A stretch of DNA of 64,000 nt, taken from contig NC_092348.1 in NCBI RefSeq assembly GCF_963676685.1, positions 71,052,001 through 71,116,000 on the forward strand, given 5' to 3'. A model generated the notes under the pieces. It was not told the DNA's origin and searched no databases. It was given only the letters and a program-made list of their open reading frames with translations. The translations under genes were made by a program, and so were the position numbers. How positions within the stretch are numbered: the stretch's first letter is position 1; every line of letters starts with the position of its first letter. This document shows positions 192 through 36,200 of the stretch, piece after piece. This stretch comes from Mytilus edulis. Lineage: Eukaryota.

Positions 192-262
192 CTTCAATGT
201 TCAAATCGTCATAAACATATGCTTCGTTCTTTCGACCAAGATCTTCATAATGTGTTCCAGAG
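192..262 (-). CDS. Gene A exon 15, ITAM-like repeat 3 (SSGTHYEDLGRKNEAYVYDDLNIE)
   Basis: 71 nt, ttacag acceptor, GTGGGT donor, phase 2-1; paralog 28684-28754. Confidence 0.88.
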
Positions 263-3200: not shown

Positions 3201-6200
3201 AACTGAAAACGCAAAAAAATGAAAGAGATAATATATTTTGATTGTATAATAATATACCTTAGATCTCTGTTTGTCTGTAGAGCTGTAAGTTACAAAATAA
3301 ATATAAAACTGCATTACAAAAATCATACAACAGGCATTGGTGTTTGTATAAAAGATGTCAGTGGCATGTACCGGATAACCCTTTTGTTTAAGTACAAAAG
3401 CATTTGAACAATTAAATAAAAAAACCAATCATTCATCAATGAAACAAGTAAAATCTTCACTTTTATTCTTTGATATTAAAGTAACGACAGATACAGAGAA
3501 GAACGCACAATTCAAACTATATAATTTAATTTATCTTTACCAGTTTAAGCACTTGGAATGTATTTCATTTTTTATTTTAAATAAATGCCAAACCATTCAC
3601 ATCGATTTTGTTACGGGAACCAACATATTACTCCTGAATCAGCAGAGCATATTGTTTTCAATCATTTTATGAAATATAAATTCAAATAACCTGACCTCAC
3701 CTTCATTGCTCAAATTGTCATAAACATTTGGGACATCTTGCAGACCAAGTGCCTCGTAATGTTTAGTCGGACTGAAACAACAATGAATACAACAGAAAAT
3801 ATAAAATCAGATATGTAAATAAAGGCAACAGTAGTATACAGGTGTTCAAAAGTCATAAATTGACTGAGGAAAAAAACAAATACGTGTAAAACTATAAAAG
3901 GGGAAAATGGAACAACATGAACACTTAAGTGCAACATCAACAAACACCAATATATATAAAAACGAAAACAACTGTAATATTCATGACTTTGTACCGGACA
4001 TTTTCATGATTTTAAGCTGGTTCGAGACACATTCTTATGCTGTTTCAGGTCACTAATTCTTTGAAAAGGTTACATAAAAATAAATTTTAATGTTATCAAA
4101 TTAAAAGACTTTGGTTACGTAGTATACAACCAATAAATGCGACTATCTTAACTAACTACCTATAGTAGTGATCACATTTTGACCGATCTATAAAAATTAT
4201 AGCTTTGTATCCTTGCTCAAGTACTTTTAGTATACGGACATAATGTGTACTTAGTTGTGCAGTGTTTGAATGTGCTAAATACTTTTCTTTAAATGGTGTT
4301 GGTATGACTAAATAGTTTCACAAAACACTGGTTAAACTACACCATGTAACGCATCTATACTATCGGGACCACAGTTGCTCGTTATTCAGTGTGGTCGGCT
4401 AAATTAGTATGGCGTTCATTATCACTGAACTAGTATATATTTGTTTAGGGGCCAGCTTAAGGACGCCTCCGGGTGCGGAAATTTTTCGCTACATTGAAGA
4501 CCTGTTGGTGACCTTCTGCTGTTGTTTTTTTCTATGGTCGGGTTGTTGTCTCTTTGGCACATTCCCCATTTCCATTCTCAATTTTATAAATGTAATAGAT
4601 TTTTCTATATAAGTTGTAATTCTGGTTAACTGGTTTAATCATCGTGTTTTGTTTTGTTTTAATTTTGTCACTTGAAAATAATTCATCTATTGAACAAAAG
4701 GAAGAAAATCTAGTTAAAAATGTCGTACCTTTGATCCCTGTTTTTGCTTGACGCTGTCAAAAGACAAATGCAATATGTCAATGCACAGGCATATCTAATT
4801 GACAGTTAATCTACATATAGCTATTACTGAAAGCTACGGATGTTAAAGATTGGTCACCAAAAACAATGATAAAATACATAATAGGTTTGAGAAATAATCT
4901 ATTCATCTTCGATGATTACAACGACAAGTGATTTTCTAAAAAAGTTCTAGACCCCATTATCATTCATTTGTCTATCGTAGTCTGTTTTGCTGCATGTTGT
5001 TTGTCTCATTCGTGTATGTTTATCTCTTTTTAGATTTTACTCCCCTTGCGACATATTTATATATAAGACTTATATATACTTCAGTGTATACAATGAAAAT
5101 GAATTAGAGGTGGGGTCTATGACTACATGTGATTCACTGAGAAAATAATTTACTGCATGGTTATGCGATTTTCTGCATTTATTGATAATACAATTATAAA
5201 CAATTGCAAAATTGTAAACATTTCATAAATTTGTCATCTATTCATACCATTTTGTGCACCGCTGCTTTTTTGAACTTCTTCATAGTTGTGTGTGTGATCC
5301 TCAGTATCAGTCTTTTCGAATTTGACTGTGCTAAATATGTACAAACATTATTGTAATTTAGTTTTATGTTTCTTGTTTATTACCACAACTTAGTAACATG
5401 TACGATTCGGCAAAGAATAAAATAAACTAGTGACAACTGATGCGCTTTAAGAAAAAAGTATGTGCATTCGTTCTTCTTTTTCTGAGGCGATATGAGGATT
5501 CCAAACACATAAAAAACAGATGAATCTTATTGAATGCTGATGTTCTTGGTGAGTATGTATACTAAATAATAAAATTTCTAGCTGGTAAATGTTCTATAAT
5601 ACGTACTAGCTGTGAAGAAATAGTTCACAAAAATATTGAACTAAATTTTGCAATACTATTTTTAACAATTATATGACTGTGTCAGTATATGTTATTTGCG
5701 GTTTGAAAATAAAACTATTAGACTTTTCTTGTCTACAGATCTTGATATTTATATTCATCAATTGTCTTTGTTAAATTGCAAACGCACTTACGCTTCACAT
5801 CGTTGATGCCCTGAAAAAAATATGTTCGTATAAGATGGATGTCAAATCCTTAGTAATATATTTTAATTTCTTAAGCCATCAGGACGAAAAAGGTTAACTT
5901 CTTATTCGTGACATTTGATTCGAGCGTCACTGATGAATCGTTAGTAAACGAAACGCTCGTCTTGAATAACAAATCGTAGTCTTCGTATCTATGGTCAATG
6001 TATACACCTTATCGCTACTGTAAATTCAGAAATTATTGCGAGGTTTTTATTATTGCGAATAATGCGACTGAGTTGTAAACGCATTAATTCAAACTCGCAT
6101 TTTGTAATATTTTAACTGAATTAAGCATGACTTTTCTCAAAATTGTAAAAATTAAAATCGCATTCAAGTGTAAAATGACAAAATCGCAATAATTAATGCA

Positions 6201-9200
6201 CGCAATAATTTCTGAATTTACAGTATTTAGTCCATTCCTGGAAAAACAGTTATTTATACAACTTCCTGTTTAGGTCACCGGCCGAAACATGGAGGTCATC
6301 AGTAGTGAGCTGAGGGAGAAAAAACTTTAGAAAGTGATCATCAAGAAACTTTGATATAGTATGATCCACTTTTTTCGAAATTAAAATTGAAGTAAAAAAA
6401 TATTTTGTTTGAAGTATTTACGGTAGTTTAAACAGGTCTCATTAAAAAGTATCATGCATAGTGAATTGTTTCAACAGGGTCCCAGATAGCTTCAACTGGA
6501 TGAAAAAGTTGTGTAATTTTAGAACTTATCCGGAATGGAATAAATAGCGATTAGGTGTATTGTATATGAATATAACACTATACAAGATATGTAAAAGAAG
6601 CCAAAGAGTCATTCAAACTCATCAGTCGGAAATAATTGTCAACGCTATGAAAATAAAAGACAAAGATCAAATGAAAAAGAAAGATGTTGTGCGTCCGACG
6701 CCATTTTTTAAAATTAATTGATGGGTAAACAGACAAATTCTAAACCAAAGGATATATACATTATTGAGTACATGAGACGCTAGACGTCGTTTAGTCGTTG
6801 TTTAATTTTAGATTGTTGTTTGTCATTATGTCGTCTAATCTTTTAATTACCAAACGTGACTTATTCCCGATTGTGACTGTTTTGCTGAGTGTGAATTCGC
6901 ATTACTATAAGACGTGTTACGGTACTTGTCTATCCCAAATTCATGTATTTAGTTTAAATGTTTAATGTTGTATTTAATTCTCATCGGATTTTGTCGAATG
7001 TGTTGACTTCTTTTCTATTATATTTATGTGTTATGGTAAATAATATTAATCACCGCATTCATTTATTAGATTTCAATTTGTTCAACGTAATCAGTGCGAT
7101 ATTTTACGTTTGAAGTGAGATTCAAAACAAACCGGACATAGCTTTATAATATAGTTAATTGCTGCCTTAGTTTGCTATAAATAAATATTGAAATGTGCAT
7201 TGTTATTAAGTGCATTATCAGTATTTAGTTCAAATGTAATCTTGGGTCAGTCCTAGTTCTATCTTATTCATTCAAATAACGTCATTTTCTATTTTTTGAT
7301 GATCTGTTTTACAAATTCAAATGACGTCATAATTTTTTTGTCATTTTTTCCAATTTCAAATATGACGTCACTTGGCGTTTAGGTTTAAACATATTCGGAT
7401 GTGTCTACATATTGTGTTGCAAATGTCTGGTTATGTACTGTATTTCAGTTGTTTCATGTAATTAGTCAATATTTCAGTTCTATCATGTACAGCTTTTGTT
7501 TATTAATTTTATAAATTTACTGTTTGCAAAAGTATAAATTATTCTAAATGATAAGGATGTTCTGGTAACTAACGGAAAACCCTGGCCGTTTTTGGCACAA
7601 CTTTTTTGATCTTTTGGTCCTCGATGCTGTTCAACTTTGTGCTTGTTTCGGCTTTCAAACTTTTGTATCTGGGCATCACTAGTAGATCTTGTGTGGATAA
7701 AATGCACTTCTGGCGTATTAAAATTTTCAACTTGTTGCCTTTTGTTGGCTGTTGTTCGTGTGTTTCTTTGTCAATTGTATTCTCCAATGTATTTATATTG
7801 TAGTCCTGTAGTGTTGAGTTGTCATCTTAATGTTATATTTCACATGGCTATAAAAGGGGAGGTTTGGCATGCCACAAAACCAGGTTCAACCCGCCATTTT
7901 TTTCTTTAAAAATGTCCTGTACCAAGTCAGGAATATGGCCATTGTTATATTATAGTTCGTTTCTGTATGTGTTACATTTTAACGTTGCGTCGTTTGTTTT
8001 CTCTTATTTTTGAGTGTAAATTCACATTGCGATAAGACGTGTCACGGTACTTGTTTTAATTTTTTATTTTTAAGAGCCCAGGACGTAAAACATGAAAGAG
8101 TGAGTAACTCGAACTACGTTTAGATACTGCGCTGATCTTAACATTATTCGGAAGGGTAATTAAATCCTGTTATGTTCTAGCGATACCAATAGACAACTTT
8201 CGAGTTCGATGCATTTCCGTCAAAAACTTTGGTATTAGTGCACGTCATTTGTGTGTTTAGGAGCATCGTCTTTTCCGTTCCAATGTTGAGCGAGTGGTTG
8301 GAAAACTATAATGTTATATTGTACAAATTCTTCTGCAAATTGAATTCTTATAATCAACAATCAGCACTGCTGTCATTAGGAAATAGTGATTAGTACCTAC
8401 AGAACAATTATTATTTCTAGTTTATACTGCACAATGACGATCATTGAGACGCTTGATGAACGTTAATAGTGCAGGGATACAGGTGATCCCCTCTATCTTG
8501 CAAATGACGTCATAAAGGCGCGCATATTGACAAGTTCTGGTGACGGATGAACTCGAAAGTGGTCTATTTGTTTATTTTTTCTCTGTTATTTTTTGTAACT
8601 TTAAAGCGTGCCGATTTAAATTTCGTCTATATCTAAATTTATTAGTATATCATAACGACCTTCGTCCCTTTAAAACTCTTTTGACTTCTTTATTTTATTA
8701 TGTAAATCTCGATTTAGTGTATATGCAAAACATGTAGACAGAACTAAAGTTAAAATGATGGTTGACAAGCTTTCTCGTTTGATAAAACATGTACTTTGTT
8801 TGATGTATAAAAAAGCACTGCATGTTAAATATCACAAAACCCAAGTTCAATATGTCTTACCTTTTCGTATCCTAATGATAAGACAAACCAAAAGCACCAT
8901 TAAAACAATTAAAGCCACCAGGCTCCCACACACAGCACCAATAATTACACCTGATGACAAAGTTGCTGGTTTTGTTGTTGAAGCTTAAACAAATAGAAAG
9001 CATCCGTTCAGTGTTTACCTAATGGTATATATTCTATGACTTCAATTAAAGAAACTATTAGCAAATAATGAACAGTTATAAGAACAAAAGAAGTAACATA
9101 TTGAATTTTCCATTAATATTTTTGGTCGATGTTTATAATTATCGAATGCCGTAAATTCACCATATATATGACCAGAACAATTCATCTGAACCGAATGGAC

Positions 9201-12200
9201 ATTCCGTTACAATGAGCTAAATACATATAATCATCAAGAAATGAACAATTTACATTCGCAAATGCAAATTCGTTCACTTTGGTACCACGAAAGATTTGTA
9301 TATCACTGACACAAATTAAAGGACAAAGATCACTATTTATATTTGATTTCAGTACAATGAGATGTGTTATTGTATTGTAATTATTATAATTATTTATGTT
9401 GGCCTGATTACTGTTGTTTGGCCTGATAGTTGTTTACAGAATAATCTTAGAACTGTGCAGTTTAGAAATTACTGGAACAATCATAGATACTGATGGAATG
9501 AGTAGAACTTTTCATTTAACTTACATAATGCTCCCAGAATGATCCTTATAAAAGATGCGTTATTCAAACTTCTAAAAGTTTCTAGAATCTTCCGTTCTAG
9601 TTTTCCAGAGCATTCTGTTTCTACAGTGTTCTAGAGATTTCCGTTACAACTATATATATACAGACGCTAAAGTAAAACTTTCAGACTAAGACATCGATAG
9701 ACATTAGTATTCACAGCATTTGAATTGACACTTTCATTCTACATTGTACAAACAACATCATACTAGATTGTGACCTTAGTAGTGGACGTAATAGTCTGAT
9801 TGGATTCCCGAGAAGATTTCCGGATACCGATAAAGATTGGACTCATATTTTGACAGTTAAGTTGACAGTTATATTTGTGTTATACTTCTTATAAACTTTT
9901 GTATAATAAAACTTGTTAAATTTTATTATCGATTTGTGTCTTTTGTTGGCTGAAATTTAAAGGTGATTTCTGACCGTAACATATGAAATAATGTATAACA
10001 GAAAATATATCAAATTGATAACTATCGGCTGGTCAATTTTTGGGCATACAATCGGCCGGTTGTTTATAACAAATAAGCAGCAACCAATTCGTTTAAACCA
10101 CAATTTGATATATTTGGAACTCATAGCAGTTTTCGCAGTTTGACAAAGTTTGACCGAAATATTTCGTTGTTCTATGCCTTTTCACTTTCTAACTGGATTA
10201 GATACAGTATCACTTTATAGACTTAACTCATACTTTCTCTTCTGAAGTTATAGTAGTTATTGTTTCGAAAATATACCTTTTGTAGAAAAGTGTTTTACAT
10301 TCTTGTATGAACAAACTACCTAATAATTATACGTTGAAACTATTAATCATGTGAATAGAAAAATAAAAAACAAAACATCATTTTTGAAAAAACAATGTCT
10401 ATTTTTTGTCGTTCTCTCATGTTCCCAAACAATTCATATGTCAGTTAATGATGTTCATTTTGTAAAATACAAGTAGTCTTTTTAAAGTTATAATACACGA
10501 TATACTTTGAACTTTATTAATCTATAATCATATATGGGGTTTTTTTGTAAGTTAGTTATGTCTTACTTGATAGTTCCAAAACCACAGTGTGTTCTACAGA
10601 TTTTCCAATACCATTTTCTAATATTAAGGTATAATTAGTGAAGTCCTCCTTTGTTAAATCATTAATTGTTAGAATTGATTTATAGCCATCTACTTTGACA
10701 GTTTTTCCATGGACAACATCTTCCACCTCGGTAAGGGATTCCGAAAAAAGAAATTTGGTTGATGTTTGAATCTGTTTTCCTTTATTGAACCATGCATTGT
10801 AAATGAACTTAGGAACACTGAACACGTGAACAACTATATGAACAGTTGTACCAATATCTCCATACTGTATATTTCTTGCATCGTTGTCTGAAGTAAATAC
10901 TGGTTGTGCTACATAAAAAAAGTAAGTATCACAGACTCATCAGTGAGTCTCAAATAAAAAAAAATAACTCTAAAAAATGAAGGAGCCTCGGAATGTAAGC
11001 TTATCCCCTAATTGTGTAAGCCTTTCTGTAAAAAAGTGCTGAAGAATAAATGCAATACAAGTGGGTAAAAATTCATCCGAAAAACTGAACTTTGACAACA
11101 TTACATGTAGCTAATTCGACGTCAAATCCGATTTAAATGGTAAAGCTAAGATTTGAAAATACATGTACAGTAATGATGTAGGTTCAACATTGTTCAATCT
11201 ATCCATGCGATTCAAGTGAACTGGCTCAAATCTTTCAGATAGAGTAAACCTCAACTCAGCATAAAAACAATCACTTTCCTTTCTTATTGTTTAAGAACGT
11301 GAACGATAATTATATGCAAATGCTATGTTAGTTTTGTATATTGTGTTTTGTAGTCTGTTACGTTTTTTTTGTGTGTCTTTTTCGTTGTTAGTTTGTCACT
11401 GTTTTACAACTTTTGATATCTTCAATGTATGTGTTGCCTCTCTTTTACATCAGCTGAAGAGGTTACGGAAAACTTGAGAACATTGGTTGCAATTAATGAA
11501 TCCTAGCACAACCGTTGATATAGATGAACATCGATTTCAAGATAGTGACATGAATTGTTGTTCTTCAATTGAGTACAAGATCAAATAGATGCAATCATTG
11601 GCGAGCAGTTTAAAGCATTTGCAATACTTTATTTCATGAAATACAAATAATTGTATAACAACTAATCAGAGAATACCATAAACAGTCATTTTTGCCGCCC
11701 CTTGCCGCTTCTCTACTCCATCCGGTCCTTGAATACCATTACTAACTGTACACACATATTCACCGTTGTCTTGATATCTGAGTGTTGTTGGAACTAAAGG
11801 CAGTGTAAGGATAGTGTCCCCGTCCAGTTCTCGAATTATGTGTCCGTACAAAGACCTATGCTGCCACTTATAAAAGGTGTATGTATCAGGATAACCATCA
11901 GCTGTACAATTTATTATTCGTGTTGGATCAGTCATTTCATAGGTGACATTATAAACTGAAACATCTGGCGGAACTGTAAGAAATTCAATTCAAATTCAAG
12001 TAATCGCTTACACCTCTTTTAAATGTTCATATGATAATCTGATGAAAATATGATAACACATTTGAAGACCATTATCAAGGAAATATTTTGTTCCTATATT
12101 CTATAAAATACTCAATAACGCAATTTTCGATTTAAGAGTTTTTGGATAAACTGAATGAATTGCGTCAATCCATTAATTCTTGTAAAGATTTGACAACACT

Positions 12201-15200
12201 TGTTTCATAGAATTATTTGAAACATTCAATACACAAACTGATAAAACATGCAAATGTAAATGTTTTCTGTTTTACGGTTTTCCCTTTACTGATCACGCTA
12301 ACATATGCTGGCACAAAAGTAAAATTGTTATCATAAGTTCATTGAGTGATAAAACATTCATTTATACTAATACAAAAAAGAAGCTGTAATATGATTTTCA
12401 ATGAGAAAACTCTTCAAAAGATACCAAAAAACTAAAAATATTATAATAACTAATCATAATGTATTAAATTGGATGGTCTGTAAAACATGGTAAAGTCTTA
12501 ACATTTAAAAAAATACGAAACACCTAAAATCAAGAAACCATATTGTTAGATAACTTACATCTTACGAATAAATTTATCTGGTTTAAAAATCCACCAATGG
12601 TGTTGTTTGCTATACATTTTATCGACTGTAAGTTGAAATTTCTGTCCACCGTATATGTTAATGTAGATGTCACCGTGAACGTTTCATCGACCCCTTGTTT
12701 TTCTTTGGATAATGCTAAATTTGTTACATCAGTTTGGCCTATTATCCACCAAATGGCGGCAACAGGACGGCTCCCGGTTGATGTACAAGATATAGAAAAT
12801 GGAACCATCTCAAATGTATTTACGAGCGATGCACTGAACACTGGCATTAAAGGCATTACTGAAATTAATTACGTATTAGAATGATTATTGACATTTAATT
12901 AACATTGATATCCGTCTGTACAGGTGTGTGCTTATACCTTGGTGGCATTCGTCAGTTTTCTGCTCTTTATTCGGGTGTTGTCTCTTTAACACATTCTCTT
13001 TTTTTTATTTTCAATTCTATTATCTGCATATTGATAGTGCATAATATGGACTGCAAGTCAAAATTTGACGTTTTTTGATGTGTGGATGAAGTGAACTAGT
13101 TAACAGAAATACTTCATATGTGTCAAGTTTCAGTATGATAAGTATCTAACAATCTATTTAAAGGATTGAAGTCATGGTATTGCCAATGTTATTTCAACTG
13201 ATCGGGCGGAGCTTACGTTTTAATTTGTATAAGGACAGTCTATTTGACGATGTGTGTGATTAGGATGATTGCCGTTATAATTATTACTGATTTCTTATCA
13301 CCTATCAGTGCCATCAAAGGAATTAACAAAAGAATAACTGGACACTTCATTGATGAGTTATCCTAAAACACATATCTATAGATGGAATGGTTTATTATGA
13401 GCGAAACGGTTAAACTCCGCCCAGTCAAGTGAAATAAATTGAGTAATAGTTGTGTGTAGGTTTTTTAAGATAAAACAATAGAACTTTTTAGGAGAAATAT
13501 ATAAGGGTAAAGGGGTTCAAAGATCCAACCAGCTGTTGTGTGATGGGTTTTTTTTTAAGTAAAATAAAAATAACATTATTGATGGGGGAAAATGCCGGGT
13601 AATTGAAAGTATCAACAATTCTTTGTTGTTGAGAGGCGAAAAGACTATCCGAATATTTAGCATGCTTTATGACATGGTAGTCTATAGTTAGTTATCACTG
13701 ATTGAGGAGTAATTAAAATTCATTCATGGAACAAATGTCTGCTTTTAAATTGCAAAATTATTGTTTTAACAGAACATTACAGTTTAATATGGAATGATGT
13801 TTCCAAAAATGTGGCCAATGTCTGAAATATTTGTATTTTTTTTATGTTTTTTAACCTTTGTAGTAATAATAAAGCTCTTAATATATCCAAAAGAGAAAAA
13901 AAAATCTAAACTTTAGCAGAAAATTCCCCAATGTCAAACTTATGCTTGTTACAAGATGTGGTTCTCTTATATATATCTTTCATAGTTTATATGTCTCTTT
14001 TAATCTTTGTTTCATTATTATAAAAATAGTCGTATCATTTAAAATATTAAATATTCATAGCTTATCCTATAATATAACTTTCCGTCGAGCAGCACCCTGA
14101 AGGAAATTAGGCTGACAATTTTGTAACGGGCCATAATGTTATATTAATCCATATTGAAAAAAATGGCACATTTCATAAATGATCAAATTATGAAAGTTTA
14201 CAAAGTGTACACAAGAAACAAGCTATTAGAAGTTCTTAAAATAGTTATCAATAAACCTATATAACAAGTAACCCGTTTCTAGTACTTTGTGCTAAGTATT
14301 TAAATTTGATGACCATGATATTCCTCATCAATCATTCTGTGCGACTATAATTGGGCATATTCAGTTATCTTATTATAGAAATAAATTTGATACTTACGAT
14401 GAAGATATATTAAAGCAGTAGTTGTCATTGGAATATTCAAAGCAGCACTAATTGCTATACATGAAACATTTGTTGTATCATAAATTCTAGGTATGTTTCG
14501 TAAAACGTATCGCAATTCCTGGAAGCCAGTTTGAACAGTTGTACCAAGTACTACAAGGGATAATATAGGAACAGGAACTCCCTGAACAGCAATACATTCA
14601 ATAAGCAGATCGTGTCCTTCTGTTCCAATCAAGGTGTTATCTGTAGAGGCATTTTGAATAGTCAAACGCAAAGGCTGCTCTAAAGAAAAAAAAATATTGA
14701 TTTATTTGTTTTAACTATATTTTTTGTCTGCATTGCTTTTTTAATTATGTTTTTAAAATTTTTTGGAAGATAGCCAGAAAGATTGTTTCGCTAAAGTGTG
14801 ATCAACTTGAGTGGTTTGATTCAATTTTTTTTAATTCAAAACAAGTTTGCGGTTACTATTATCATAGCAAATGGTAATTTGTATGGGATTCGAAAAATGT
14901 GTCCGGGAAGGTAATATCTCTTACTGTGGATTATTATTTGTTGCAATAATGCCTACGGTATTGATTACTCAATGTGTTAGTCTAGAACTAACATATCTCA
15001 ATGATATGTACCGACCTGCAAATATATATTATATTTCTCAAACTGTCACCAATAGCTAATTTGTCAAAGCGGGTATATGTTACAAGCATTTTCTCAATTT
15101 AGGCATTATGTCAAATTACTGACATGTTTATGCATATTTTAAAATGCCTTAAAAAGTCATTTTGTAAAATGCCTGAGATTTTAAATATTTTATTTTAAAA

Positions 15201-18200: not shown

Positions 18201-20424
18201 CATAAACATGTTGAACCCCGCCGCAATTTTGCGCCTGTCCCAAGTCAGAAGCCTCTGGCCTTTGTTCGTCTTGTATGATTTTTAATTTTAGTTTCTTGTG
18301 TATAATTCGGAGTTTAGTATGACGTCCATTATCACTGTACTAGTATACATATTTTTAGGGGCCAACTGAAGGACACCTACGGGCGCTGGAATTCTCGCTA
18401 CATTGAAGACCCCTTGGTGGACTTCGGCTGTTGTCTGCTCTATGGTCGGGTTGTTGTCCCTTTGACACTTTCCCCATTTCCTTTCTCAATTTTATTATGT
18501 ATGAACATATGAAAACTCTCATTAGATTTATAATACTATTTTTAATAACATACATCTTCCTACCGTATAAAATCAGATGAATGTAGTATGATTCAGTAAT
18601 CCCTCCTCGACATATGTAAATCCCCTCATCATTGGGTTGAGCGTTCAGTACATGTAATCGGTAGTACAAACCAGTGCTTGTGACTGATACTTTGTACTTT
18701 GTAGGATCAATAACAGAATTCTTATTAGATATAATGGTAATATTTTTGTACCATTTCAGGTTCTCCCTTTCATATCTACACTGAAGAACTGCTTCATGTC
18801 CTTGTTTAACATACGTTCGAAAAGGATCTGACGCTGTACCTGAACCTGTTGCATCAACGTCTAATACAAATATATCTGCAAAATGAATGAAAACATCAAT
18901 AATCACATTAGAATGAACAGTTGAATTTTTAAACAAATAATGAACAATAGATTGGTTTAAGGTATGGACCCTTATTCCAATGAATAATATTCAGCATGAT
19001 AATTCTTTGTAAGTGACATAATTATAATCAGTTTTATACTTTACAAAGATATAGATATATTTTTTTTAAGTTTGCGAGAACAACAATCCCAAACTAAATC
19101 AAGAAAGTGAGTTTAAAACATGTTTTTTTTTTTAAATATTCCGTTTATAACTAATTAACTTATCAAGAAACTGTGGTGCAATTGATCTTAGAAGGATTTG
19201 ACTATTATTTTTAGTTCCCATTCGGACAATGAAATCTATATGCAAAATTAAACTTAAATGTGTAATACTGCGACCAGGTTCAATCAACTCTTTTTTCTTA
19301 AAATGTCCGTTTATGAAATACTTCGTATTTATGTATGTTGGCATTTGTTTGTGTTGTTATTCAGTATTTTTATTGTTCTGTTGTTTCTCTCTTATAGTTG
19401 ATGTGTTTCCCTCGGTTTTAATTTGTATCTCGGATTTGTATTCGCTACATCGATTTATTACTGTTGAAAACCGTATACTACTGTTGCTTTTATATATAGT
19501 CGATTTCTGTTACTTCAGCTTATAAGAAAGAACTTTTTGTGTACATTTCTTGCTGATTTTAAATAATTTTCATACTTCAAAGCGCTTACTAAGTTAACCA
19601 TCACCAGAAAGCATAGTTGCAACATAAATGATGAGTCTGCTCAAAGTATACTTTGCCATTTACTACCTTTCTGGACAATTCTTCTTAACCATGATAGTTT
19701 TAGTGCCATAGTGAAATTCTATTTATAAAGGTCTTACATTTTTAAAAACCCCGCCGAATATGCTATAATCCACACATCAGTGTTTCGTCGATGTGTAGGT
19801 AGATATATATAGGAAGATGTGGTATAAGTGCCAATTATACAACTCTCAATCAAAATCACAATTTATAAAAGTAAACCATTACAGGTCAATGTACGGCCTT
19901 CAACACGGAGCATTGCCTCACACCGAACAGCAAGCTTTAAAGGGCCCCAACAATTAGTTAGTATGTAAAACCATTCAAACGGGAATGTCTATGATATGTC
20001 ATATATTTATTCTTTTGAATTGTCCGAAGTATTTCGCAAAATTAAATTAAAAACCACTTTTAACATCTTGTATGTGGAAGCTATCAAACAAATTCCAAAT
20101 CCAAAAAGCAATACAGGCCGAAATAATCAACTAGAGCCATAAATCGGGTACTTAGTACAAACATATAGAAAGACTTAATGTGATGATAAATACATTCAAA
20201 TATTGTTTTAACTTATTCATAAGTAGAATAGACCTTGGCTTTTCAACATAAAAACATCAAGGTTCATCATAACAACTGGACAAAAAATATGTATTTTTCA
20301 CCTCAAAAATCACTCTGAGTAGGAAAAAAACATGCAACTTGAAATTATTAATTACAATGGTATGTAAATACTTACTGTATGCAGAAATATGTAAAACGAT
20401 TAAGCAGGATTGAATTAAATCCAT
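192..20424 (-). CDS. Gene A (spliced, 3' end outside window): Ig-superfamily type I receptor, leader + 5 Ig domains + TM + at least 3 ITAM-like repeats
   Basis: 15 exons with GT/AG ends and continuous phase: 20376-20424, 18564-18875, 14398-14679, 12559-12858, 11677-11973, 10567-10908, 8861-8983, 5792-5810, 5248-5330, 4729-4753, 3701-3771, 3258-3282, 2771-2841, 2098-2122, 192-262. About 698 codons, no stops; exon-for-exon match to gene B. Confidence 0.92.
593..845 (+). mobile_element. Hammerhead-bearing dispersed repeat, degenerate core (CUAAUGC), with another short repeat inserted at about 650-745
   Basis: Matches 29860-29992 and 35105-35250. Confidence 0.65.
2098..2122 (-). CDS. Gene A exon 14, 25-nt spacer micro-exon (ESQKIGGQ)
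   Basis: ttttgcag / GTAATT, phase 1-2; paralog 30738-30762. Confidence 0.8.
2355..2520 (+). mobile_element. Degenerate tRNA-derived SINE-like fragment
   Basis: Box B-like ggttcaaatc then caaaccaaagactttaaaa; related sequence at about 59890-60020. Confidence 0.45.
2771..2841 (-). CDS. Gene A exon 13, ITAM-like repeat 2 (RSSRNYEKLGLKDVPNVYEDLTKK)
   Basis: 71 nt, ttttacag / GTGATG; paralog 31930-32000. Confidence 0.88.
3258..3282 (-). CDS. Gene A exon 12, 25-nt spacer micro-exon (ALQTNRDL)
   Basis: cttacag / GTATAT, phase 1-2; paralog 32440-32464. Confidence 0.78.
3701..3771 (-). CDS. Gene A exon 11, ITAM-like repeat 1 (SPTKHYEALGLQDVPNVYDNLSNE)
   Basis: 71 nt, ttgtttcag / GTGAGG; paralog 32951-33021. 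Confidence 0.88.
4729..4753 (-). CDS. Gene A exon 10, 25-nt spacer micro-exon (ASSKNRDQ)
   Basis: ttgacag / GTACGA; paralog 33577-33601. Confidence 0.8.
5248..5330 (-). CDS. Gene A exon 9, cytoplasmic, single YEEV motif
   Basis: 83 nt, phase 2-1, ATVKFEKTDTEDHTHNYEEVQKSSGAQN; paralog 34156-34238. Confidence 0.85.
5792..5810 (-). CDS. Gene A exon 8, 19-nt juxtamembrane micro-exon (GHQRCE)
   Basis: tttttttcag / GTAAGT; identical to 34701-34719. Confidence 0.82.
6018..6223. mobile_element. MITE, TA target duplication (Tc1/mariner-like)
   Basis: 23-bp TIR ctgtaaattcagaaattattgcg flanked by TA; same family at 58088-58293. Confidence 0.85.
8861..8983 (-). CDS. Gene A exon 7, transmembrane exon
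   Basis: 123 nt, TSTTKPATLSSGVIIGAVCGSLVALIVLMVLLVCLIIRIRK; hydrophobic run then basic stop-transfer. Confidence 0.92.
9365..9981 (+). mobile_element. Probable solo LTR
   Basis: TGTTA...TAACA termini, gatg/tatg flanks, TATA-like run near 9651, AATAAA 9905-9910; absent from paralogous intron of gene B. Confidence 0.55.
10567..10908 (-). CDS. Gene A exon 6, Ig domain 5 (cysteine-less)
   Basis: 342 nt phase 1-1; W and LTINDLTKEDFTNYTL strand pattern. Confidence 0.92.
11677..11973 (-). CDS. Gene A exon 5, Ig domain 4
   Basis: 297 nt phase 1-1; CTADGYP..W..DNGEYVC. Confidence 0.95.
12559..12858 (-). CDS. Gene A exon 4, Ig domain 3 (C-type, CD80/nephrin-like)
   Basis: 300 nt phase 1-1; CTSTGSRP..IWW..TVTSTL..C. 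Confidence 0.95.
14398..14679 (-). CDS. Gene A exon 3, Ig domain 2
   Basis: 282 nt phase 1-1; CIAVQGVPVP..VSC. Confidence 0.93.
15074..15519. mobile_element. MITE/foldback element with internal aaatgcct repeats
   Basis: About 45-bp imperfect terminal inverted repeats. Confidence 0.6.
17520..17823. mobile_element. Short element ending in a long perfect hairpin (17656-17819)
   Basis: 64-bp perfect arms; ends ttaagaaatcattcatg / catgaattatttcttaa. Confidence 0.6.
17925..18497 (+). repeat. Dispersed repeat family (about 550 bp) ending in ttccccatttcc.ttctcaatttt
   Basis: Near-identical copy 43615-44162; partial copies 4405-4587, 46430-46632 and inverted 35903-35967. Confidence 0.85.
18564..18875 (-). 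CDS. Gene A exon 2, end of leader + V/I-type Ig domain 1
   Basis: 312 nt phase 1-1; LQC..W..LHV..DEGIYIC. Confidence 0.95.
20376..20424 (-). CDS. Gene A exon 1, signal peptide (MDLIQSCLIVLHISAY)
   Basis: 49 nt from ATG to GTAAGT donor, phase 1; same length as gene B exon 1. Confidence 0.85.
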
Positions 20425-26505: not shown

Positions 26506-27150
26506 TACAACTTATAAGACGAGAAGAATATTTCGTCAAGGATTTCCATTATATTATCATGCTAGGATTTCATCTAGAACTTATTCTAACATTTTGTAGA
26601 TCAGGTAATTTTTGTTCAAGCTTCTTGTGGTAGGTACATTTTGTTGCCAGTTGCAATAGTAGGCCATCTTTTTCCTATTTTCAAAATCCCCCGACCTTAC
26701 TGGCGAAAACTAAATTGTCGTCACATTATTCATTATTAGTTGTCACTTGTTGCAAATGTTTCAACAATCAAAATGTTTTAGCATCTTTGAATTTTTAATA
26801 TTTGAAAATTTTACTTGATGCATATTAAAAGAAACAAAAGGAAAAATATGAAATGTCTTGCTGCTGGTCGTACAAATTTTATTGCCGTTTTAATTGAACC
26901 ACTCTTAATGAGAAAATAATTAAAGAATATTGTTTTGAAGCCAAGATGAAAAGTGTCCCTAACATCTTTTCTTTTATTTCATATTTTGAAACGAAGTTGT
27001 ATAACGTTATCATATACTATGTCTTAAACGCAAATATGACAAATTTTCATGTCATATGATACGAATCCGTTAGCTGGTTGTCAAATTACAAATAGTGCCT
27101 TTAGAAAATTGTCAGTATTTTATTTTCATCTGATCAAGATATTCAGTTAA

Positions 27151-27206
27151 TCAGTTTCCCTGTGTCCATTGTTTTGAGTCGTTTTCATACACTTTATTTT
27201 CAGCGT
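27151..27206 (-). CDS. Gene B probable terminal exon (DAENKVYENDSKQWTQGN*)
   Basis: tatttcag acceptor, phase 1, YEN motif, TGA at 27151-27153, AATAAA at 27119-27124. Confidence 0.7.
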
Positions 27207-30200
27207 CTGAAATATATATAACATGTCATATAACAATCTTAAACTGTCTTTGCCAAATTTTGAGTCAATTTGAAAAGAAAGATAAATTCGCCGTCAACAT
27301 GAAACATAGTTCTTTTGACCTTATTTTCTGTAAATTAACCTGCCTATCATGAGAACAACTTTGTCTGAGGTGTAGCTGCATCTGTAGTTTCCATATGATT
27401 AAAAATTTATTAACGGAAAATTCATGAAAGTTATGTTATCAATCATTTTAGAAACTTCGTACTGAGTTGATTATACCCTCTTGGAAAAACAACTAATCAG
27501 CAGCGGAATTGAAACGGTTTGAAATAATAAACAAAATAATAATAAAAAAAAGTAAATGATTTGCAAATCATGATTTATTTCTAGTGGTTAACATTAATAA
27601 TATTACAATAATTGTAATCAGAATAGATAATTGATAGGAATTCTTGCAATTCCTAAAGTTTTTTTTTATTAAACTGCAGACTTACTTCAATGCCATTACT
27701 ATTGTCAAATATAAACGTCTTTCCTAATTCTTTACACAATACGTTCTAATAATTACATGATGTGCTTTAATTTTTTGCATATATGTGTTCTTTTAGCAAC
27801 CATAGAATACAATAGCTTTAGAAATACATTTTTTTTTTATCATAGATGACTCACCCTCATTTATTAAATCATCGTAAACAGTGGGGTTGTTTTTCAAACC
27901 AAGATCCTCATAATGTTGTGTCGGGCTAAAATGAAATATTAAGATGTATTCACTTAGATATTAGATATATTTATGTAATCACAATGTACTAGTTTGGTCA
28001 ATTGAATTGAAACTTTGCTTTGACAAAGATTTTATTAATTACATATAATCGAGTAACTGATTTTTTTTTATTGAAATGTTAACCATTGATAGGATTATTT
28101 TTTGTGGTTTATACTGAATGTTTTTTTGCAAAACCAATCCATTAAATCTTCTTTCTCAGAAATGAATTACAAATATTACCTATTAACTGTGGTTTCTCCG
28201 CAATCTGTAATGAATAATAATAAGAATGAAGCAAACAACATTTATTGTTGGCTTTAGATGAATTTGGCTTTTTATTTTAGGCATTTTTGACATATAGCTC
28301 TTCAACGGTTTCGGTACTTATACATCTTCGGATTTCTTATGTTTGGCTTTGAGCGTTCCTGATGAAGGTAAAATCCAGAAAAGCGCTTCGGACGTAAGAA
28401 ATTATTAAACGTGCTGTTTTTAATTTGTTATTGGAGAAAACAATTTAAACTTGATAAGAATTCGCCTGTTTAAAGTGCTTTCTAAAACTCACTTCAAAAA
28501 CATAGCATTCAAAAACAATGAAGAATTACATTCACAATACCAAGACAAGACCAATTCACTATTTGTTATCCTTTTTTGTACCATTTTTCAATTGCCAAAT
28601 TATAACTTCAAAATATGCATCAACAGTTTCAATTTATGTCTGTCATGACTATATAATTTAAATATACCCCAAAATCGTCCTACCTTCACCTTTCAAATCA
28701 TCATAAACATATGCTGCGTTCTTTCGACCAAGATCTTCATAATGTGCTCCAGAGCTGTTAATTAATGCAAAAATCTCATAGATTGAGAAGAAAATCAGTG
28801 AAACAAATAAAATTAGAGTATCGCATGAAATATAAAAGGACCGAGAGTTCGTCGACAGAATAAATTTCTGCGTATGCATAAGTCCTTTCTTAGTCATAAT
28901 CACATTCGGGAATATGACACACTAGCTATAGGTAAAATTGCGTACCATACGACTATTCTACTGTATTATGTTATATGACTGCAAAATATGTCGATAATAA
29001 GGTGAGATACAGACGTTATGGAATCGTTGATTGTTATGGAATAACCGTTTCACAAATGATATCGGATATGTTCCTTACGTCGTAACTACAATCCCCTTCC
29101 CTTTCATATATGTGACTTACCGAATTAGACTATTTACCGGATTGATTATAACATAAGCAACACGACGGATGCCACATGTGGAGCAAGATCTGCTTACCCT
29201 TCCGGAGCACCTGAATTCACCCCTAGTTTTTGGTGGGGTTCGTGTTGTTTATTCTTTAGTTTTCTATATTGTGTCATGTGTACTACTGTTTGTCTGTTTT
29301 TCCTTTTCTTTTTTGGCATGGCGTTGTCAGTTTATTTCGATTTATGAGTTTGACTGTCTATCTGGTATCTTTCGTCCCTCTTTTAGAATCATTTGGAACA
29401 TGTGAAGGTCGTACAACTGTTGGTTACTGCAATCATCAAGTTTGCATATATTTTAGTTTGAAGTCTTTCATATGTGTCATCATCGCGGAAAAGTCAAGAT
29501 AAGAAGCAGACCTCCTAGTTTTGGTAGAATTCTCAATTTTAAGTAAAAGTTCTTACGATGTTTGAGAATGTCTTGTTTCCATTATGCATAATAGTTGTAC
29601 AAAAATTATTCGGCAACTAAGGGTACACAATAATTGTCGGTGTGTTTGATTTTTGGCCTCAGTACGGCTATTAAAAGTAATATTTGACCTAAAATGAAAT
29701 TTACAGCTACAATTTTAATTTGTTAAAGAGCTGTTCAAAGTTACGATGTTTTCGATCTGTCCAAGTGCATCATAATGTTTTGATGCGCTGTTACATTTAT
29801 CAAAAGACTATAGAATAGATAATTTTGAATAAATGGTATACCTACTTTTTGGAATTTTGGATCCTCAATGCTCTTCAACTTTGTACTTGTTTGGTTTTAT
29901 TAATATTTTGATATAAGCGTCACTGATGAGTCTTATGTAGAAGAAACGAGCGTCTGGCGTACTTAATTATAATCCTGGTACCTTTGATAACTAGTACTAG
30001 TTTATTGCAAATACTGATAATATCTTTCTGTTATTATTGTATAGTCTTACTCCTAACTTAATATATTTGTCGGATTTTGATTGGCTAACACACGTTGTTA
30101 TTATACCCATAGCCTCAGATGTTGTTAACCCATATACTCGAACGTTGATTCCATGTACCCTGGGAAATGTCATGCGCATTTTCGATGGTTTTCCATGTAT

Positions 30201-33200
30201 TGAGTTCTGTAGATTATCCAGGATATCAGTTAGTAGATAAATCCACTTACGAATTTATCTTAATTAGTCAATCATTTGCAGTAAATTTAGGAAATGCATC
30301 ACTTGAATACCACATCGTTGTCAGTTTCACGGTCTCTGGATTTAAAACGTCTTATATTTGACTACCTGTAGTTATCTAACATATCTAGCTTCTTACATAT
30401 CTTTAAAAATGTGTCAAATTTTAAAAAAAAAAGCGTTTTAAAATGATAAAAAAGCTTTTACGTTAAAGTGTGTGCTCAAATTTATCAAATTTGGACTTAG
30501 ATCGGGGATAGGTTCGTTATCTACGTTCATATCCGTAGATATGGTACGATTATCGAATTGATATTTAAAAACAAAAGAAATTCAGTTTACTGAAAGAGAA
30601 AGTGGGAATAGTGTATGAATGTAAAGAAGTAGCAAATAATAAAACATCTTTATCTTTGTTCACTCAAATGTTAAAGTGGTCTAAAGCAGGCCTTTTAATT
30701 ATTCTTTTATTAATGGTTCAAAGAAATTAGAAATTACCTTGAATCTTCGTTTTCCTGTGACGCTGTAAAGTAAAATAAATAACGTATTGTATCAAATTCA
30801 GGTGTTACTTAAACTGAATATGCCCATATTTACATACGTCGTGTTCCTTAATATCTATTAAATCACAGAAATAAGGCAATTCAATTGCCGGCGCGCAGGA
30901 TAATCATACGAAAAGTGATAGATCACATAAGAAATTCAAAGGAACTTAGCCTGTTATAAAATTTAGATGATTTTCGTCTCTAATTCACCTCATTTCCTTG
31001 TTGGTCTCGTGGTAGCGTGCTCGCTTCGGTTAGAGTGACATTTAAGTTAAAACTGTGGCTCAGTGTTTCAGTTTAGTACAAATAGATATAAGAATATGTG
31101 GTATTAGTGCCAATGAGACAACTCTCCAAACAAGTCAGAATTAAACAAGTGAACCATCATAGGTAAAAGTACCGTCTTCAACACGGAGCCTGGTTAATCT
31201 AAATTAAAATATTTAACGTCAAACTGACAGATTTTTATTGAATAATACAAGGGATATAATTTCCTCTGTTCCATTGCTCAGTGGGAAACAATTTTCTAAA
31301 TAGTACCCTGTAATGCAGACCAATCAAAAATCGATAATTCAAAGGACAATGAAGTTAATCTACATCAATAAATCAAAGACAATCATCATGGCCTTTATTT
31401 TGGCCTCAAAACAACGTTAAGTACGTAGACTGTCAATAAAAAAGAAAATGTCTTGCTTCCAATTTGGTTTTTTTTGTAATAGCTGTTCCGTTGGTAAGTG
31501 AGTGACGTAATCGTTAAGTAGTTTCAAAATAAAATTTTACAGTAAAAGACAATGATGATAGAACATTCAGTGTGATAAATTTAATTACACATAGTTGAGA
31601 GAGTGATAGAGCAGATTGCATGGTATCCCTCGGAAAAGCATTTACAACCTCGCCTTCTCCTCAGTTGACAATGTATCATCGCTATAACAATCTGCTCTAT
31701 CACCCTCTCAGCTTTGGTTATTTATATAATATCACATAATCATACTCTTGTCCCTAATACGCGTTATATTTGCCACCAGACGTTAAAGATTCATCTATCC
31801 TCCCATCAATCCAGCTTACCTCATTAATTGTTTTTTTTTCAACAATAAACGAAATATATATATATTTTTCTTTTTTGTAAATAATATCTTTTGTATTGAA
31901 ACATTTTATAAAGATAAATGTGACATCACCTTTATCAGTTAAATCTTCATAAACATTAGGGGCATCTTTCAAACCCAGTTTTTCATAATTTCTTGAAGAG
32001 CTGTAAAAATAAATAAACAAACATGTTTGCCATTATGTAGTACAATATATGCTTCTATGTTTACCGAATATCGTAACTATCAGAAAACTGAATACAAATT
32101 CAATTAATTTATTTACATTTTTCAAGTATAATTCTGGAATTCAGAAACTCTATTCACATATATTTTTCTTAATGCTTTGCGTTTATCTGTTGACTTTGGT
32201 TCGTTTTTTGTTTATTTAGCCTCGATAAATTTCGTATATTCACACAACATTATTATATTTAACTGTTAAAATATATTTGTATCTATATGCCATATAACGA
32301 TGGAGAATGCTTAAAGGGAGAAAAAGGATAGAGACGAAAACATAAGTTCGGTCTACAGAAGTACATCCTTTTTCAAGTCTTAAAAAAAACGTACAAAAAA
32401 GAATGATATATAAAATGTTTCGATAAAATAGTACCATACCTTAGGTCTTTGTTTGCATATGGTGCTGAAAAATACAAAACAAATAAATCACTTCATTACA
32501 TGTAACATAAAACAGATATGGTTACTTTAATAAAAGAGGTCAGTGTTACGTACCTGATTAACCGTATTTTCTAGTTCTTTAGTACAGAAGCATTTGAACA
32601 ATCAAATAATATCGATCTATTATCAACAAGGAAAAACTCATCAAGGCTATGAAGTATCTTGAACTGGCAAGAAATATTTGTAAACAAGAATGTTCGGTGT
32701 TCAAAAATTCACTTTTAATCTCAGATAATAAAGTAGCAGCGGATATAGAGAAGAACGCGCAGTTCAAAATAAGTTATTTCTGTCAATTTCATATATAGAG
32801 CATTTGAATGAAATGCCTTTTTATATTGAATAAGTGAAGAATTATATACATTGATTATTGTGTGTTGACTAAAATATTTCTTTTGAATAAGCACAGCAAT
32901 TTTTTATCAATTGTTTTCAGAAAAATAGATTTAAATACCATTGATCTCACCTTCATTGCTCAAATTGTCATAAGCATTTGGGACATCTTGCAGACCAAGT
33001 GTCGCATAATGTTTCGTCGGCCTGAAACAAAAATGAATACAACATAAAATACAAAATGAAATGTAAGTCTTTGTGTTGTTTCAGATTCCTCAATTTTTGA
33101 AAAAGATAACATACAAATAAACTTAATATTATCAAATTTAAACACTACTGATAAAAGCACATTGTAAGAAATATTTGTTTGTCTTCATAGTATTCGACCA

Positions 33201-36200
33201 AAATACGTCACTACCTTAACTGCCTACAAATAGTTACTGTAGTGATCACATTTGGACCAAGTTGTCCAAATTAATAGCTTTTGTCCTTGCTCAAGGATAT
33301 GGACATACATTGTGTGCCTCGGTTGTACAGTTTGCGAATGTGTGATATACTTTTTCTACATATAGTTTTAATAGGTTCACAAAACAAAATGATTAATCCA
33401 CAGCACGTAGCTCCCCTAAACGTTATTAAGTGTTCGGACATTAAAGGAATATACTTTTCAATATCAGTGGTAATTTCTGTTATCTGCTGTAAGTACTATT
33501 TTCTTTTTAAATTGAGCAACAGGAAAACTATTCATCCGTTTTAAAAAGGGAGGATATCTAATTAAAAATGTCATACCTTTGATCTCTGTCTTTGTTTGAA
33601 GCTGTTAAAACACAAATGCAATATTTCAATGCAAAACAAAATTTAACTGACAAACAATTTACATTTAGCCTTATTGTACGTCAGGGATGTTAAGAGTTGT
33701 CACTCAAAAGGTTGATAAAGATACAGTATAGGTAAAATAAGCCACCATCATCATCTATAATAGCAACTGTCTTTGCATAGTTGATAAGTGTACCTATACT
33801 GAATACAACTTTATAGTATCTATTCCTCTTCGATTGAAACAACTACATAAAACCTTTATAAGAGTTCTAGTTCCCATACAAAATTTACTTGTCTATTGTA
33901 CACTGTTTCGTTGCATGTTGTTCGCGTATTGTCCTCTCTTTAAAGTTTTTACTATCCTTGTGACTAATTTGAGGACAAAACATGTACAGTTTAGTGTGCA
34001 CAAATAATGAGAGTGTAATCTATGACTGCGTGTGATTTAATGGTTAACTTTTTACTGATTTGCTGCGTATGCTGTTTTGAGAATTTATTGATAATTCAAT
34101 TATAAACGATTGCAAATTTATAAATATGTCATAAATTTGTTTATTTTATTCATACCATTTTGTGTACCGCTACTGTTTTGTACTTCGTCATAATTGTGTG
34201 TGTGATCATCAGAATCAGTCTTTTCAAAGGCCACTGTGCTGAAAATGTACAAACATTATTTTAATAGACTTTTGTGTTTTTTGTTTTTACCACAACTAAG
34301 TAACATGCATGATATCTAGTCTACAAAGAATAAAATAAACTAGTGGCATACAACTGATGCATTTTTTAAAAAGTGTATGTGAATTCTTTTTTCTTTTTGT
34401 TTGACGATATGAGGTTTCAAAACAAAACAAAAACAAACGTCTCTTATTTGTTCTTGGTCAATATGTATCTTAAATTATAAAATTTCTAATTAATATATGT
34501 TTTATAATACGTACTAGCTGTGACGAAATAGTTCACAAAAATGTTGAACTAAATAAGGCACAGCAATTGTTTGACAATTTCATGAATGTGGCAGTATATA
34601 TTTTACGCGGTTTGAAAATAAAACTATTAGACTTTTCTTGCCTACAGGTATTGATATTTTTCATCATCATTTGTCTGTGTTAAATTTCAAACGAACTTAC
34701 GCTTCACATCGTTGATGCCCTGAAAAATGTATAAGATGGATGTGAAATCCTTAGTAATATATTTTAATTCCTTAAGCAATCAGGACGAAACAAGTTAGCT
34801 TCTTCATTCGTGATATTTGATTCGAGCGTCACTGTTGAATTGTTTGTACAAGAAACGCGGGTCTACTATAACAAGTTTAAGTCCTCCTGATATCTTTGGT
34901 CAATGTATTTTATATGAAAATAAAACTATATAAGATAGGTGAAAGATGCCAAAAACTCATTCAAACTCATCAGTTGAAAAAAAACCTGACAATGCCATGG
35001 TAATACAAGATAAAGGTCAAAAGATAGAGATAGATGTTCTGCTACCGACGCTATTTTCGGAACCAATTAATGGGTAAATAGAAAAGCCGTATTTGGCTCA
35101 TCTGTTTTGAATTTTTGGTGGCAAAGCTATTCAACTTTATACTTCTTTGTATTTCTAACTTTTTATTATCTGAGCGTCACTGATGAGTCTGATAAAGACG
35201 AAACGCGGGTTTGGTGTATCAAATTATAAGCCGGTTACCTTTTATAACTGTATCAGCGTTACCTATTGTTTCGGTTGGGTTTTTCTTCTGGTACTTGCAT
35301 TGTTGTCACTTTGCAACGTGCCGATTTAAATTTCGTCTATGTGTAAAATTTGTTAGTATATCATTACAACCTTCGTCCCTCATTATTCTTCATGAGTCTC
35401 GATTAATTTTAGATGCTAACCATGTAGACAGAACAAAAGCTAAAATGATGATTGGCACGCTACGTAATCGTTTGATAAAAACATTTACTTTGTTTGATGT
35501 ATAAAAAGCACTATATATTAAGCATCACAAAAGCCGACTTGAACAAGTCTTACCTTTCCGTCTCTTAAAGATTATCAAGACCAAAACCACCATTAAAACA
35601 ATTATAGACACCAGACTCCCGCACACAGCACCAATAATTACACCTGATGACATTGTTTCTGGTTTTATTGTTGAAGCTTAAACAAATTGAAAAAGATATT
35701 ATCAAAGAATCACATTAATGTTCACGTTATATAGGGTACATGTATATATCCTATGACTTTATCTAAACTAACAGTTTGCAAATAATGTACAGGTTACAAT
35801 GTATATGACAAGGTGTTACTTTGATGAAATTTCGGAACACGATGTAATCTTAAATTCTTCAAGATATTTTGTTCAATGAATTTCCACAATTTTCAATTGC
35901 CAACAGGTCTTCAATGCAACGAGAAATTCCCGCACCCGGAGGCATCCTTCAGCTGGCCCCTAAACAAGTATTTACTTTGACCCTTTGACAAAAAATTTCA
36001 AAAAATTAGAACCAATCAATTTATCAGAAAAATTACACTGGTTTTATAGCAGTTTGAGACAAACACTAATTTTGATCATTGAGAAGCTTCATATTCCCTT
36101 AACAAACAACATATTTAAAACTTTTAGCTGATTTTACAGAGTTATCTCCCTGTAGTGTTCGGTTCCAACTTAAACGGGTTTTGATAAATGACCTGTTTTA

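Follow-up and report, generated by a model that had tools for sequence, protein, structure and literature searches.

Why should the outermost domain of two neighbouring receptor genes differ far more than the domains beneath it? The question is raised by a stretch of 64,000 nucleotides (the window; G000:C5:71052001-71116000, with positions below in window numbering unless G000:C5 is given) in which two tandem genes lie on the minus strand, A (~0-20.4 kb, extending past the left end) and B (27-42.4 kb). Protein records identical to the window genes carry the label Mytilus edulis. Each gene comprises a leader exon, five immunoglobulin (Ig) exons with phase-1 borders (domains D1 to D5), a transmembrane (TM) exon and a tail in which 25-nt spacer exons alternate with 71-nt exons. 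The first-pass annotation had noted that A and B are least alike in D1, and had ascribed this to antibody-like loops diversifying for different ligands; the observation is confirmed here, while the interpretation proves right only in part. D1 is probably the ligand-binding head of a five-Ig TM receptor with four motifs of the ITAM consensus (ITAM, immunoreceptor tyrosine-based activation motif) in its tail, and the difference between the A and B heads would stem mostly from likely recombination between heads and stalks (D2-D5), which set old heads on younger shared stalks; in addition, a handful of residues in the head have probably been positively selected.

The D1 exon of A (312 nt, AG/GT ends, phase 1-1, minus strand 18875-18564) is joined to D2 at 14679, through the predicted sites, in contigs from two runs presumed to be RNA and of unstated tissue; one contig (X4 record 17) covers the exon end to end and another (X8 record 24) covers 18564-18864. 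Splicing of gene A in silico yields a frame of 737 residues; it contains four YxxL-x8-YxxL motifs, and a separate 71-nt exon encodes each of them.

Between A and B, amino-acid identity is 62 of 103 residues in D1 (60%, or 57% counting gap columns), 63 of 93 in D2 (68%), 84 of 99 in D3 (85%), 87 of 98 in D4 (89%) and 95 of 113 in D5 (84%), which bears out the reported gradient. The reported 4-residue indel in D1 is also present, together with a second one of 1 residue ahead of the E strand. The claim that D1 differences cluster from the first Cys to strand E holds for this pair (21 of the 37 positions in residues 33-69, compared with 20 of the remaining 66; p=0.012 by Fisher's test) but is not significant across 12 paralogous D1s (0.42 vs 0.33; p=0.15). 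At the codon level, D1 shows non-synonymous divergence (dN) of 0.275, synonymous divergence (dS) of 0.54 and a dN/dS ratio (omega) of 0.51 [0.28-0.97], as against 0.076, 0.34 and 0.22 [0.15-0.33] for D3-5 pooled (bootstrap P, 300 resamples, 0.04 for dS and 0.013 for omega); the omega of D1 is thus about twice that of the stalk domains. An elevated dS in D1 with omega well below 1 had been named in advance as the sign of older ancestry rather than selection. Half of that was found: dS is raised in D1 and omega lies below 1, which therefore argues for an older ancestry of the D1 lineages.

The wider family shows that the gradient is no general rate. A genome search with each domain recovered ~20 related genes at 69.0-71.6 Mb on C5 and further relatives elsewhere, at 18.2 Mb, at 77.5 Mb and on C7, C9, C12 and C115; such counts are lower bounds, and exon sets were assembled for 18 genes. 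Four genes in the order D, C, A, B occupy 71.00-71.10 Mb on the minus strand, with D3-D5 stalks 73-92% identical, while eight plus-strand genes (69.07-70.35 Mb) and one at 18.2 Mb carry A-like heads on stalks that average ~44-47% identity to that of A. When A/B/C are compared with the eight plus-strand genes, mean identity is 62% in D1 and 44-47% in D2-D5, so that D1 is the most similar domain between the subfamilies. Silent sites agree: dS by the Nei-Gojobori method (NG86) is 0.28-0.74 in D1 (24/24 pairs finite), at least 1.32 in D2 (11/32 saturated), 0.97-2.04 in D3 (32/32 finite), at least 1.55 in D4 (10/32 saturated) and at least 1.14 in D5 (1/32 saturated). Within the plus cluster the median dS of D1 (0.38) matches that of D3 (0.36), and silent-site constraint on D1 is therefore no explanation for its low value between subfamilies. 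For example, A and g7024 share 71, 43, 39, 46 and 48% of residues in D1 to D5. Likewise, per-exon DNA trees place subfamily-separating branches of 0.57 and 0.95 in D2 and D3, and none that long in D1.

Gene D, two genes downstream of A, makes the separation of head and stalk plain, as it bears an unrelated head lacking the first Cys, 27% identical to that of A, on a stalk 76-87% identical to A's (76, 84, 87 and 78% in D2 to D5); at least two far-apart head types thus sit on A-like stalks. Its V-type head lies at G000:C5:71009283-71009576 (-), without the B-strand Cys, which rules out that gene D is headless; no close relative of this head was found elsewhere in the genome (best other match 38%). 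The same pairing of head and stalk recurs in M. coruscus record P0013 and in M. edulis record P0014, and is therefore not an assembly slip.

Gene B gives the converse case. In the head tree B groups with M. coruscus P0018 (79% identity; support 99/95), yet its stalk is nearer to P0013 (D4 90%, D5 87%) than to P0018 (80%, 69%), and the gradient is reversed between B and P0018 (D1 79%; D2-D5 59, 69, 80 and 69%). By approximately unbiased (AU) tests on the D4+D5 stalk tree, constraints that unite B with P0018 (p-AU=6e-55), P0011 with P0017 (p=6e-4) or all V-headed genes (p=9e-6) were rejected, as was, on the head tree, a single group of all genes with A-type stalks (p=0.004). Moreover, D4-D5 of the V-headed v7144 and v7748 are nested among those of I-headed plus-strand genes (100/99). 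Heads matched across species differ by 15-21% (D-P0013 85%, B-P0018 79% identity), whereas the difference between the A and B heads is 40%, although their stalks are separated by a similar distance; the divergence of the A and B stalks is comparable to that of cross-species matches, and their heads appear to have split earlier. A test resembling the pairwise homoplasy index (PHI) gave p=0.016 for D1-D5 joined, the floor of 60 permutations, and p=0.32, with no sign of recombination, inside D1. Domain exchange between paralogs, a trait of paired receptors, is supported by dS, trees, AU and PHI-like tests and domain identities alike. Given the separate histories of D1 and stalk, the foreign head of D and the mismatch between B and P0018, the A/B gradient reads mostly as old heads on younger shared stalks.

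Where the joins might lie was sought in the introns. Those of A and B align from the D2 region through the tail (~68-84%), and around D1 the exon alone aligns; alignment of the D1 flanks is limited to A with C and to some of the plus-strand genes with one another, and no swap breakpoint was found by intron homology around D1. The exchange would take place close to the D1-D2 intron, through unequal crossover or conversion; like every Ig exon border, this intron is of phase 1. This intron of A contains high-copy repeats, one of them common to the upstream region of B, that could seed such events. The leader of B resembles that of P0018 and the leader of D that of P0013, which suggests that signal exon and head move together. 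New receptors may therefore arise by duplication and by swapping of a leader-plus-head block against one of stalk plus tail, and point mutations would further alter some exposed positions of the head. At G000:C5, the genes at 69.40 and 69.56 Mb are of plus-cluster type in D1-D3, their D4-D5 being merely 32-50% identical to those of their neighbours, which suggests more exchange points within the stalk.

Site models were fitted to 12 D1s and, for D2-D5, to 13 genes. Omega under M0 was 0.52 in D1 vs 0.21-0.32 in D2-D5. For D1, M2a improved on M1a by twice the log-likelihood difference (2dL) of 19.1 (p=7e-5), with omega2 of 3.3 at ~8% of sites, and M8 on M8a by 18.8, while for D2-D5 the 2dL of M2a vs M1a was 0; a positively selected class was thus present in D1 only. 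The D1 value stayed at 17.0 with the gappy CC′ region masked, and null simulations reached at most 3.2 (16 runs) or, with forced recombination, 8.1 (15 runs). The positive class comprises, in A numbering, E37 and S95 (posterior at least 0.99), K43 (0.97, alignment-sensitive) and Y42, S53 and P57 (~0.8). About half of D1 sites fit an omega near 1, and A vs C gives a D1 omega of 0.85-0.97 at dS 0.2. In addition to recombination, a small number of head residues are likely to have been positively selected.

D1 scores 28.9 bits with Pfam ig, above cut-off; 25 with I-set (cut-off 23.7, above); and 24.3 with V-set (cut-off 26, below). C32, W41 and C88 are invariant in 12/12 D1s, giving the B-F disulfide and C-strand Trp of the Ig superfamily. 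An AlphaFold model (predicted local distance difference test score, pLDDT, 81, its first ten residues being unreliable) shows strands A′ 18-22, B 28-33, C 40-43, C′ 46-50, D 60-64, E 70-75, F 84-89 and G 95-102, and the C″ strand typical of V-set domains is absent from this one predicted model built on 12 sequences. Usual Ig nomenclature places E37 in the BC loop, like complementarity-determining region (CDR) 1, and S95 at the FG/G junction (CDR3-like); Y42 and K43 lie on strand C of the model, in which the four extra residues of B would extend the CC′ turn at the end opposite to the CDR loops. Of the proposed CDR1- and CDR2-equivalent diversification, the first part thus gains from E37 as the top site, whereas 'CDR2' is unsuited, since the indel falls in the CC′ turn and the model lacks a C″ strand. 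The best fold match is pIgR D2 (Z 12.4, root-mean-square deviation 1.7, 88 residues aligned), and V and I domains of pIgR, IgLON, CD80, CD4, DIP/Dpr and CD48 are tied in Z, so the fold search does not discriminate an immune from an adhesion role.

Consensus ITAMs (YxxL/I-x(6-9)-YxxL/I; PMC9546547) together with a TM segment are present in the minus-strand genes, with four motifs in A, four in B and C and five in D. No ITIM-only tail (ITIM, immunoreceptor tyrosine-based inhibitory motif) occurs among the tails inspected; some ITAM-consensus pairs overlap an ITIM-like string. Tyrosine-pair exons were found for 5/11 genes within the 10-20 kb examined, most tails being incomplete, and related heads occur on two stalk and tail types: a fibronectin type III (FN3) exon follows D5 in 6/7 genes with A-like head and distant stalk for which downstream DNA was examined. 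By analogy with the oyster receptor CgIgR, ligand binding at the head might cluster the receptor in hemocytes, where phosphorylated tandem tyrosine motifs could recruit a Syk-type kinase; microbial or parasite surface molecules are the most likely ligands. A decayed fifth copy of an ITAM-type exon lies at ~29777 (-) in the tail region of B, D retaining five such exons; tail motif number varies through exon gain and loss. Two peculiarities of A's tail concern G000:C5:71050450-71050520 and window 5792-5810: compared with B and C the last exon is displaced by a single base, so that its final tyrosine motif is cut while the four ITAM exons keep their frame, and the RefSeq model P0173 runs into the intron that follows the first tail exon and stops there, which would give a tailless form.

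Several points weigh against our reading. The AU test does not reject a tree in which the eight I-type heads of A-type-stalk genes form a single clade (p-AU=0.13). Errors are visible in the M. coruscus models P0017 and P0018, and D4 of P0018 is closer to P0013 (85%) than to P0017 (76%); given that clade and those model errors, the head transfers are fixed neither in number nor in direction. For most plus-strand and V-headed genes, exons were linked by order and proximity, not RNA. The codon models are our own F3x4 code, not PAML, with naive posteriors, and the seven-gene plus-type set alone gives p=0.11 (not significant) for M2a vs M1a and p=0.008 for M8 vs M8a. Lastly, the closest folds include neural adhesion domains (IgLON, DIP/Dpr, ZIG-8/RIG-5, Kirrel D1).

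Those folds, and a cluster with ITAMs and domain-level mosaicism like that of Alr, would suit allele-specific receptors of self and non-self, as Hydractinia Alr1/Alr2, or neural adhesion codes of the Dpr/DIP kind. Extreme allelic polymorphism of domain 1 is known for Alr1/Alr2, and the first-pass annotation likewise thought of allorecognition. Gene A offers little of it: M. galloprovincialis P0001 differs from A by 2, 1, 1, 0 and 1 residues in D1-D5 (2/103 in D1), RNA contigs differ from its D1 at 2/312 and 1/301 letters, a third run chosen for low word share differs at 4/151, and 17/24 listed runs under five organism labels contain at least half of the exon's words. Samples and runs were found by similarity to the exon, a search that favours near-identical holders and that divergent alleles would escape, so this is weak evidence that A's D1 lacks the look of a hypervariable allodeterminant. 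Its near invariance in these samples argues against allele-level allorecognition, as do the lack of an ITIM-only partner in the tails inspected and Z-scores tied across many V and I domains, and we hold this alternative to be unlikely.

A second alternative takes heads as stable gene identities under relaxed constraint, with conversion homogenising stalks alone among tandem neighbours and the selection signal an artefact. It would account for the patchy dS of A-C (D5 0.04, D3 0.08, D4 0.37), for the D1 sites near neutrality and for the shallow star formed by M. edulis group stalks. However, conversion of stalks among A-D cannot bring the head of A near heads on another stalk type 0.8-2 Mb away, and the likelihood ratio of D1 exceeds 31/31 null simulations; homogenised stalks probably contribute without explaining everything, and as a full account this alternative strikes us as improbable. 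It is just as doubtful that D1 simply evolves fastest, in a smooth gradient left by diversifying selection on CDR1/CDR2-like loops after a single duplication: the higher omega of D1, its A-C value, the rank of E37 and the A-B differences in residues 33-69 leave this a secondary effect, but as sole cause it is contradicted by the similarity of D1 between subfamilies down to silent sites, the AU tests, the reversed gradient of B vs P0018, the cross-species head distances and the position of the indel.

Table 1. Features of genes A and B in the window.
Feature	Position	Strand	Evidence or remark
Gene A D1, membrane-distal Ig head (V/I-like, model without C″ strand)	18564..18875	-	spliced to D2 in contigs
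Codon E37, BC loop	18763..18765	-	positive-class posterior >0.99
Codon S95, FG turn / start of G strand	18589..18591	-	positive-class posterior 0.99
Gene A signal-peptide exon, coding part	20376..20424	-	matches P0001 N-terminus
Gene A D2	14398..14679	-	contig splicing to D1
Gene A D3 (C2-set_2)	12559..12858	-	
Gene A D4	11677..11973	-	
Gene A D5 (I-set)	10567..10908	-	
Gene A transmembrane exon	8861..8983	-	
Gene A tail exons inside window	192..5810	-	ITAM-consensus exons 3701-3771, 2771-2841, 192-262; fourth just beyond window
Gene B D1, with 4-aa CC′ insertion	41304..41630	-	head lineage common to M. coruscus P0018
Gene B D2-TM	35554..40382	-	D2 40101-40382, D3 38608-38907, D4 37624-37920, D5 36862-37203, TM 35554-35676; model P0012
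Gene B tail exons, four ITAM-consensus motifs	27150..34720 (ends approximate)	-	
Gene B signal-peptide exon	42379..42427	-	start codon at 42427; 3′ end approximate

NCBI-annotated counterparts are P0012 for gene B, P0004 for C, P0015 for D and P0173 for part of A. Automatic database labels on these Mytilus proteins read NCAM1-like, nephrin-like, irregular chiasm-like or CEPU-1-like, whereas A and B lack an FN3 domain (checked for B) and have tails with repeated ITAM consensus. Elsewhere in the window, 57437-63372 (+) holds exons of a gene that we take, from the motifs of a C4 zinc-finger DNA-binding domain at 57437-57775 (+), to be a nuclear receptor, with ligand-binding-domain-like exons downstream; self-alignment also reveals tandem repeats with units of ~80-165 bases at 44397-44726, 50761-51234, 53029-53358 and 60606-61061.

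Five further genes of the family have classical V-type heads, assigned by position. Excluded from the counts were a frameshifted gene at 70.29 Mb, a partial D1 copy at 69.704 Mb, a gene at 71.63 Mb whose D3 contains stops, isolated exons, and paralogs at 77.5 Mb (the second gene), at 70.38 Mb and on C7, C9, C12 and C115; D3 of v7144 and v7748 was omitted (ends mis-called), and g6987 was retained despite a stop in its FN3 exon. Upstream of gene D, at G000:C5:71013791 (-), lies a long open frame; it belongs to a reverse-transcriptase element, presumably Penelope-like, whose end resembles GIY-YIG. In P0020 of the scallop Mizuhopecten yessoensis a V head is combined with the D2-D3 pair in three repeats, with domains like D4-D5 and with a tail that bears a tyrosine pair, which suggests that the family extends outside mussels; no oyster protein was among the matches of word-limited database searches, and those in the Atlas were just generic clusters of Ig receptors. 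A D1-type head fused to a uromodulin-D8C/VWD protein (P0036, a Mytilus edulis record) is not supported as real, its M. galloprovincialis cluster mate lacking the head and the best genome copies reaching 55% (head) and 64% (D8C part); P0036 may be a gene-model fusion.

To our knowledge mussels have no rearranging receptors, and they are exposed to heavy microbial loads and contagious cancers. The cluster supplies defined candidates for activating surface receptors, whose variable residues can be named, and its natural head/stalk chimeras make specificity testable. It also carries a caution, namely that a divergence gradient between two genes may stem from recombination, not rate. One could speculate, with little confidence, that 69.0-71.6 Mb is a molluscan analogue of the leukocyte receptor complex, a germ-line stock of exchangeable Ig heads; recombination, perhaps through inversions between the convergent plus and minus arrays, would keep grafting them onto stalks with one to five ITAM exons, so that haplotype-specific sets of specificity by signal strength would tell foreign cells (parasites, other mussels' contagious cancer cells) from self.

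Among known systems, CgIgR of Crassostrea gigas is alike in domain layout, with a signal peptide, five Ig domains, a TM segment and an ITAM-consensus tail with an 8-residue spacer; it is reported to bind bacteria and lipopolysaccharide, to be located in hemocytes and to interact with Syk (PMC6994640). The sections of that paper available to us describe one ITAM, as against four in A, and mention no gene cluster or head exchange. The Hydractinia Alr family shares clustered Ig receptors and ITAM tails, some members having an FN3-like domain (PMC9546547), and Alr12A/B are reported to be >90% identical apart from domain 1 (64%), which was read as exon shuffling (bioRxiv 10.1101/2022.03.04.482883), a phrase with 0 matches in the accessible PNAS text of the Alr work (PMC9546547). 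As far as those excerpts go, Alr proteins have fewer Ig domains, include ITIM members and lack the Cys pin in domain 1, whereas D1 of A has Cys32, Trp41 and Cys88 and both Cys are present in A and B, the head of gene D being without the first; A's D1 also varies little among alleles in the samples seen. In primate CEACAMs the N-domain is shuffled between paralogs by conversion, with positive selection on binding surfaces (PMC8860441), and in Botryllus FF/FcoR extracellular Ig parts are exchanged by intergenic recombination, FcoR tails bearing tyrosine motifs (PMC12582321). Judging from the portions available, both have opposing ITIM and ITAM members and ligands known or mapped, whereas the mussel tails inspected are of ITAM consensus; the resemblance is one of pattern, and homology is not claimed. 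A variable or shuffled distal Ig domain is thus already familiar from Alr, CEACAM and FF/FcoR. No paper on this Mytilus cluster was found in a literature search that was weak on subscription journals, and the cluster is apparently undescribed so far, the kind of system being known: ITAM-tailed Ig receptors that diversify by domain exchange and focal positive selection.

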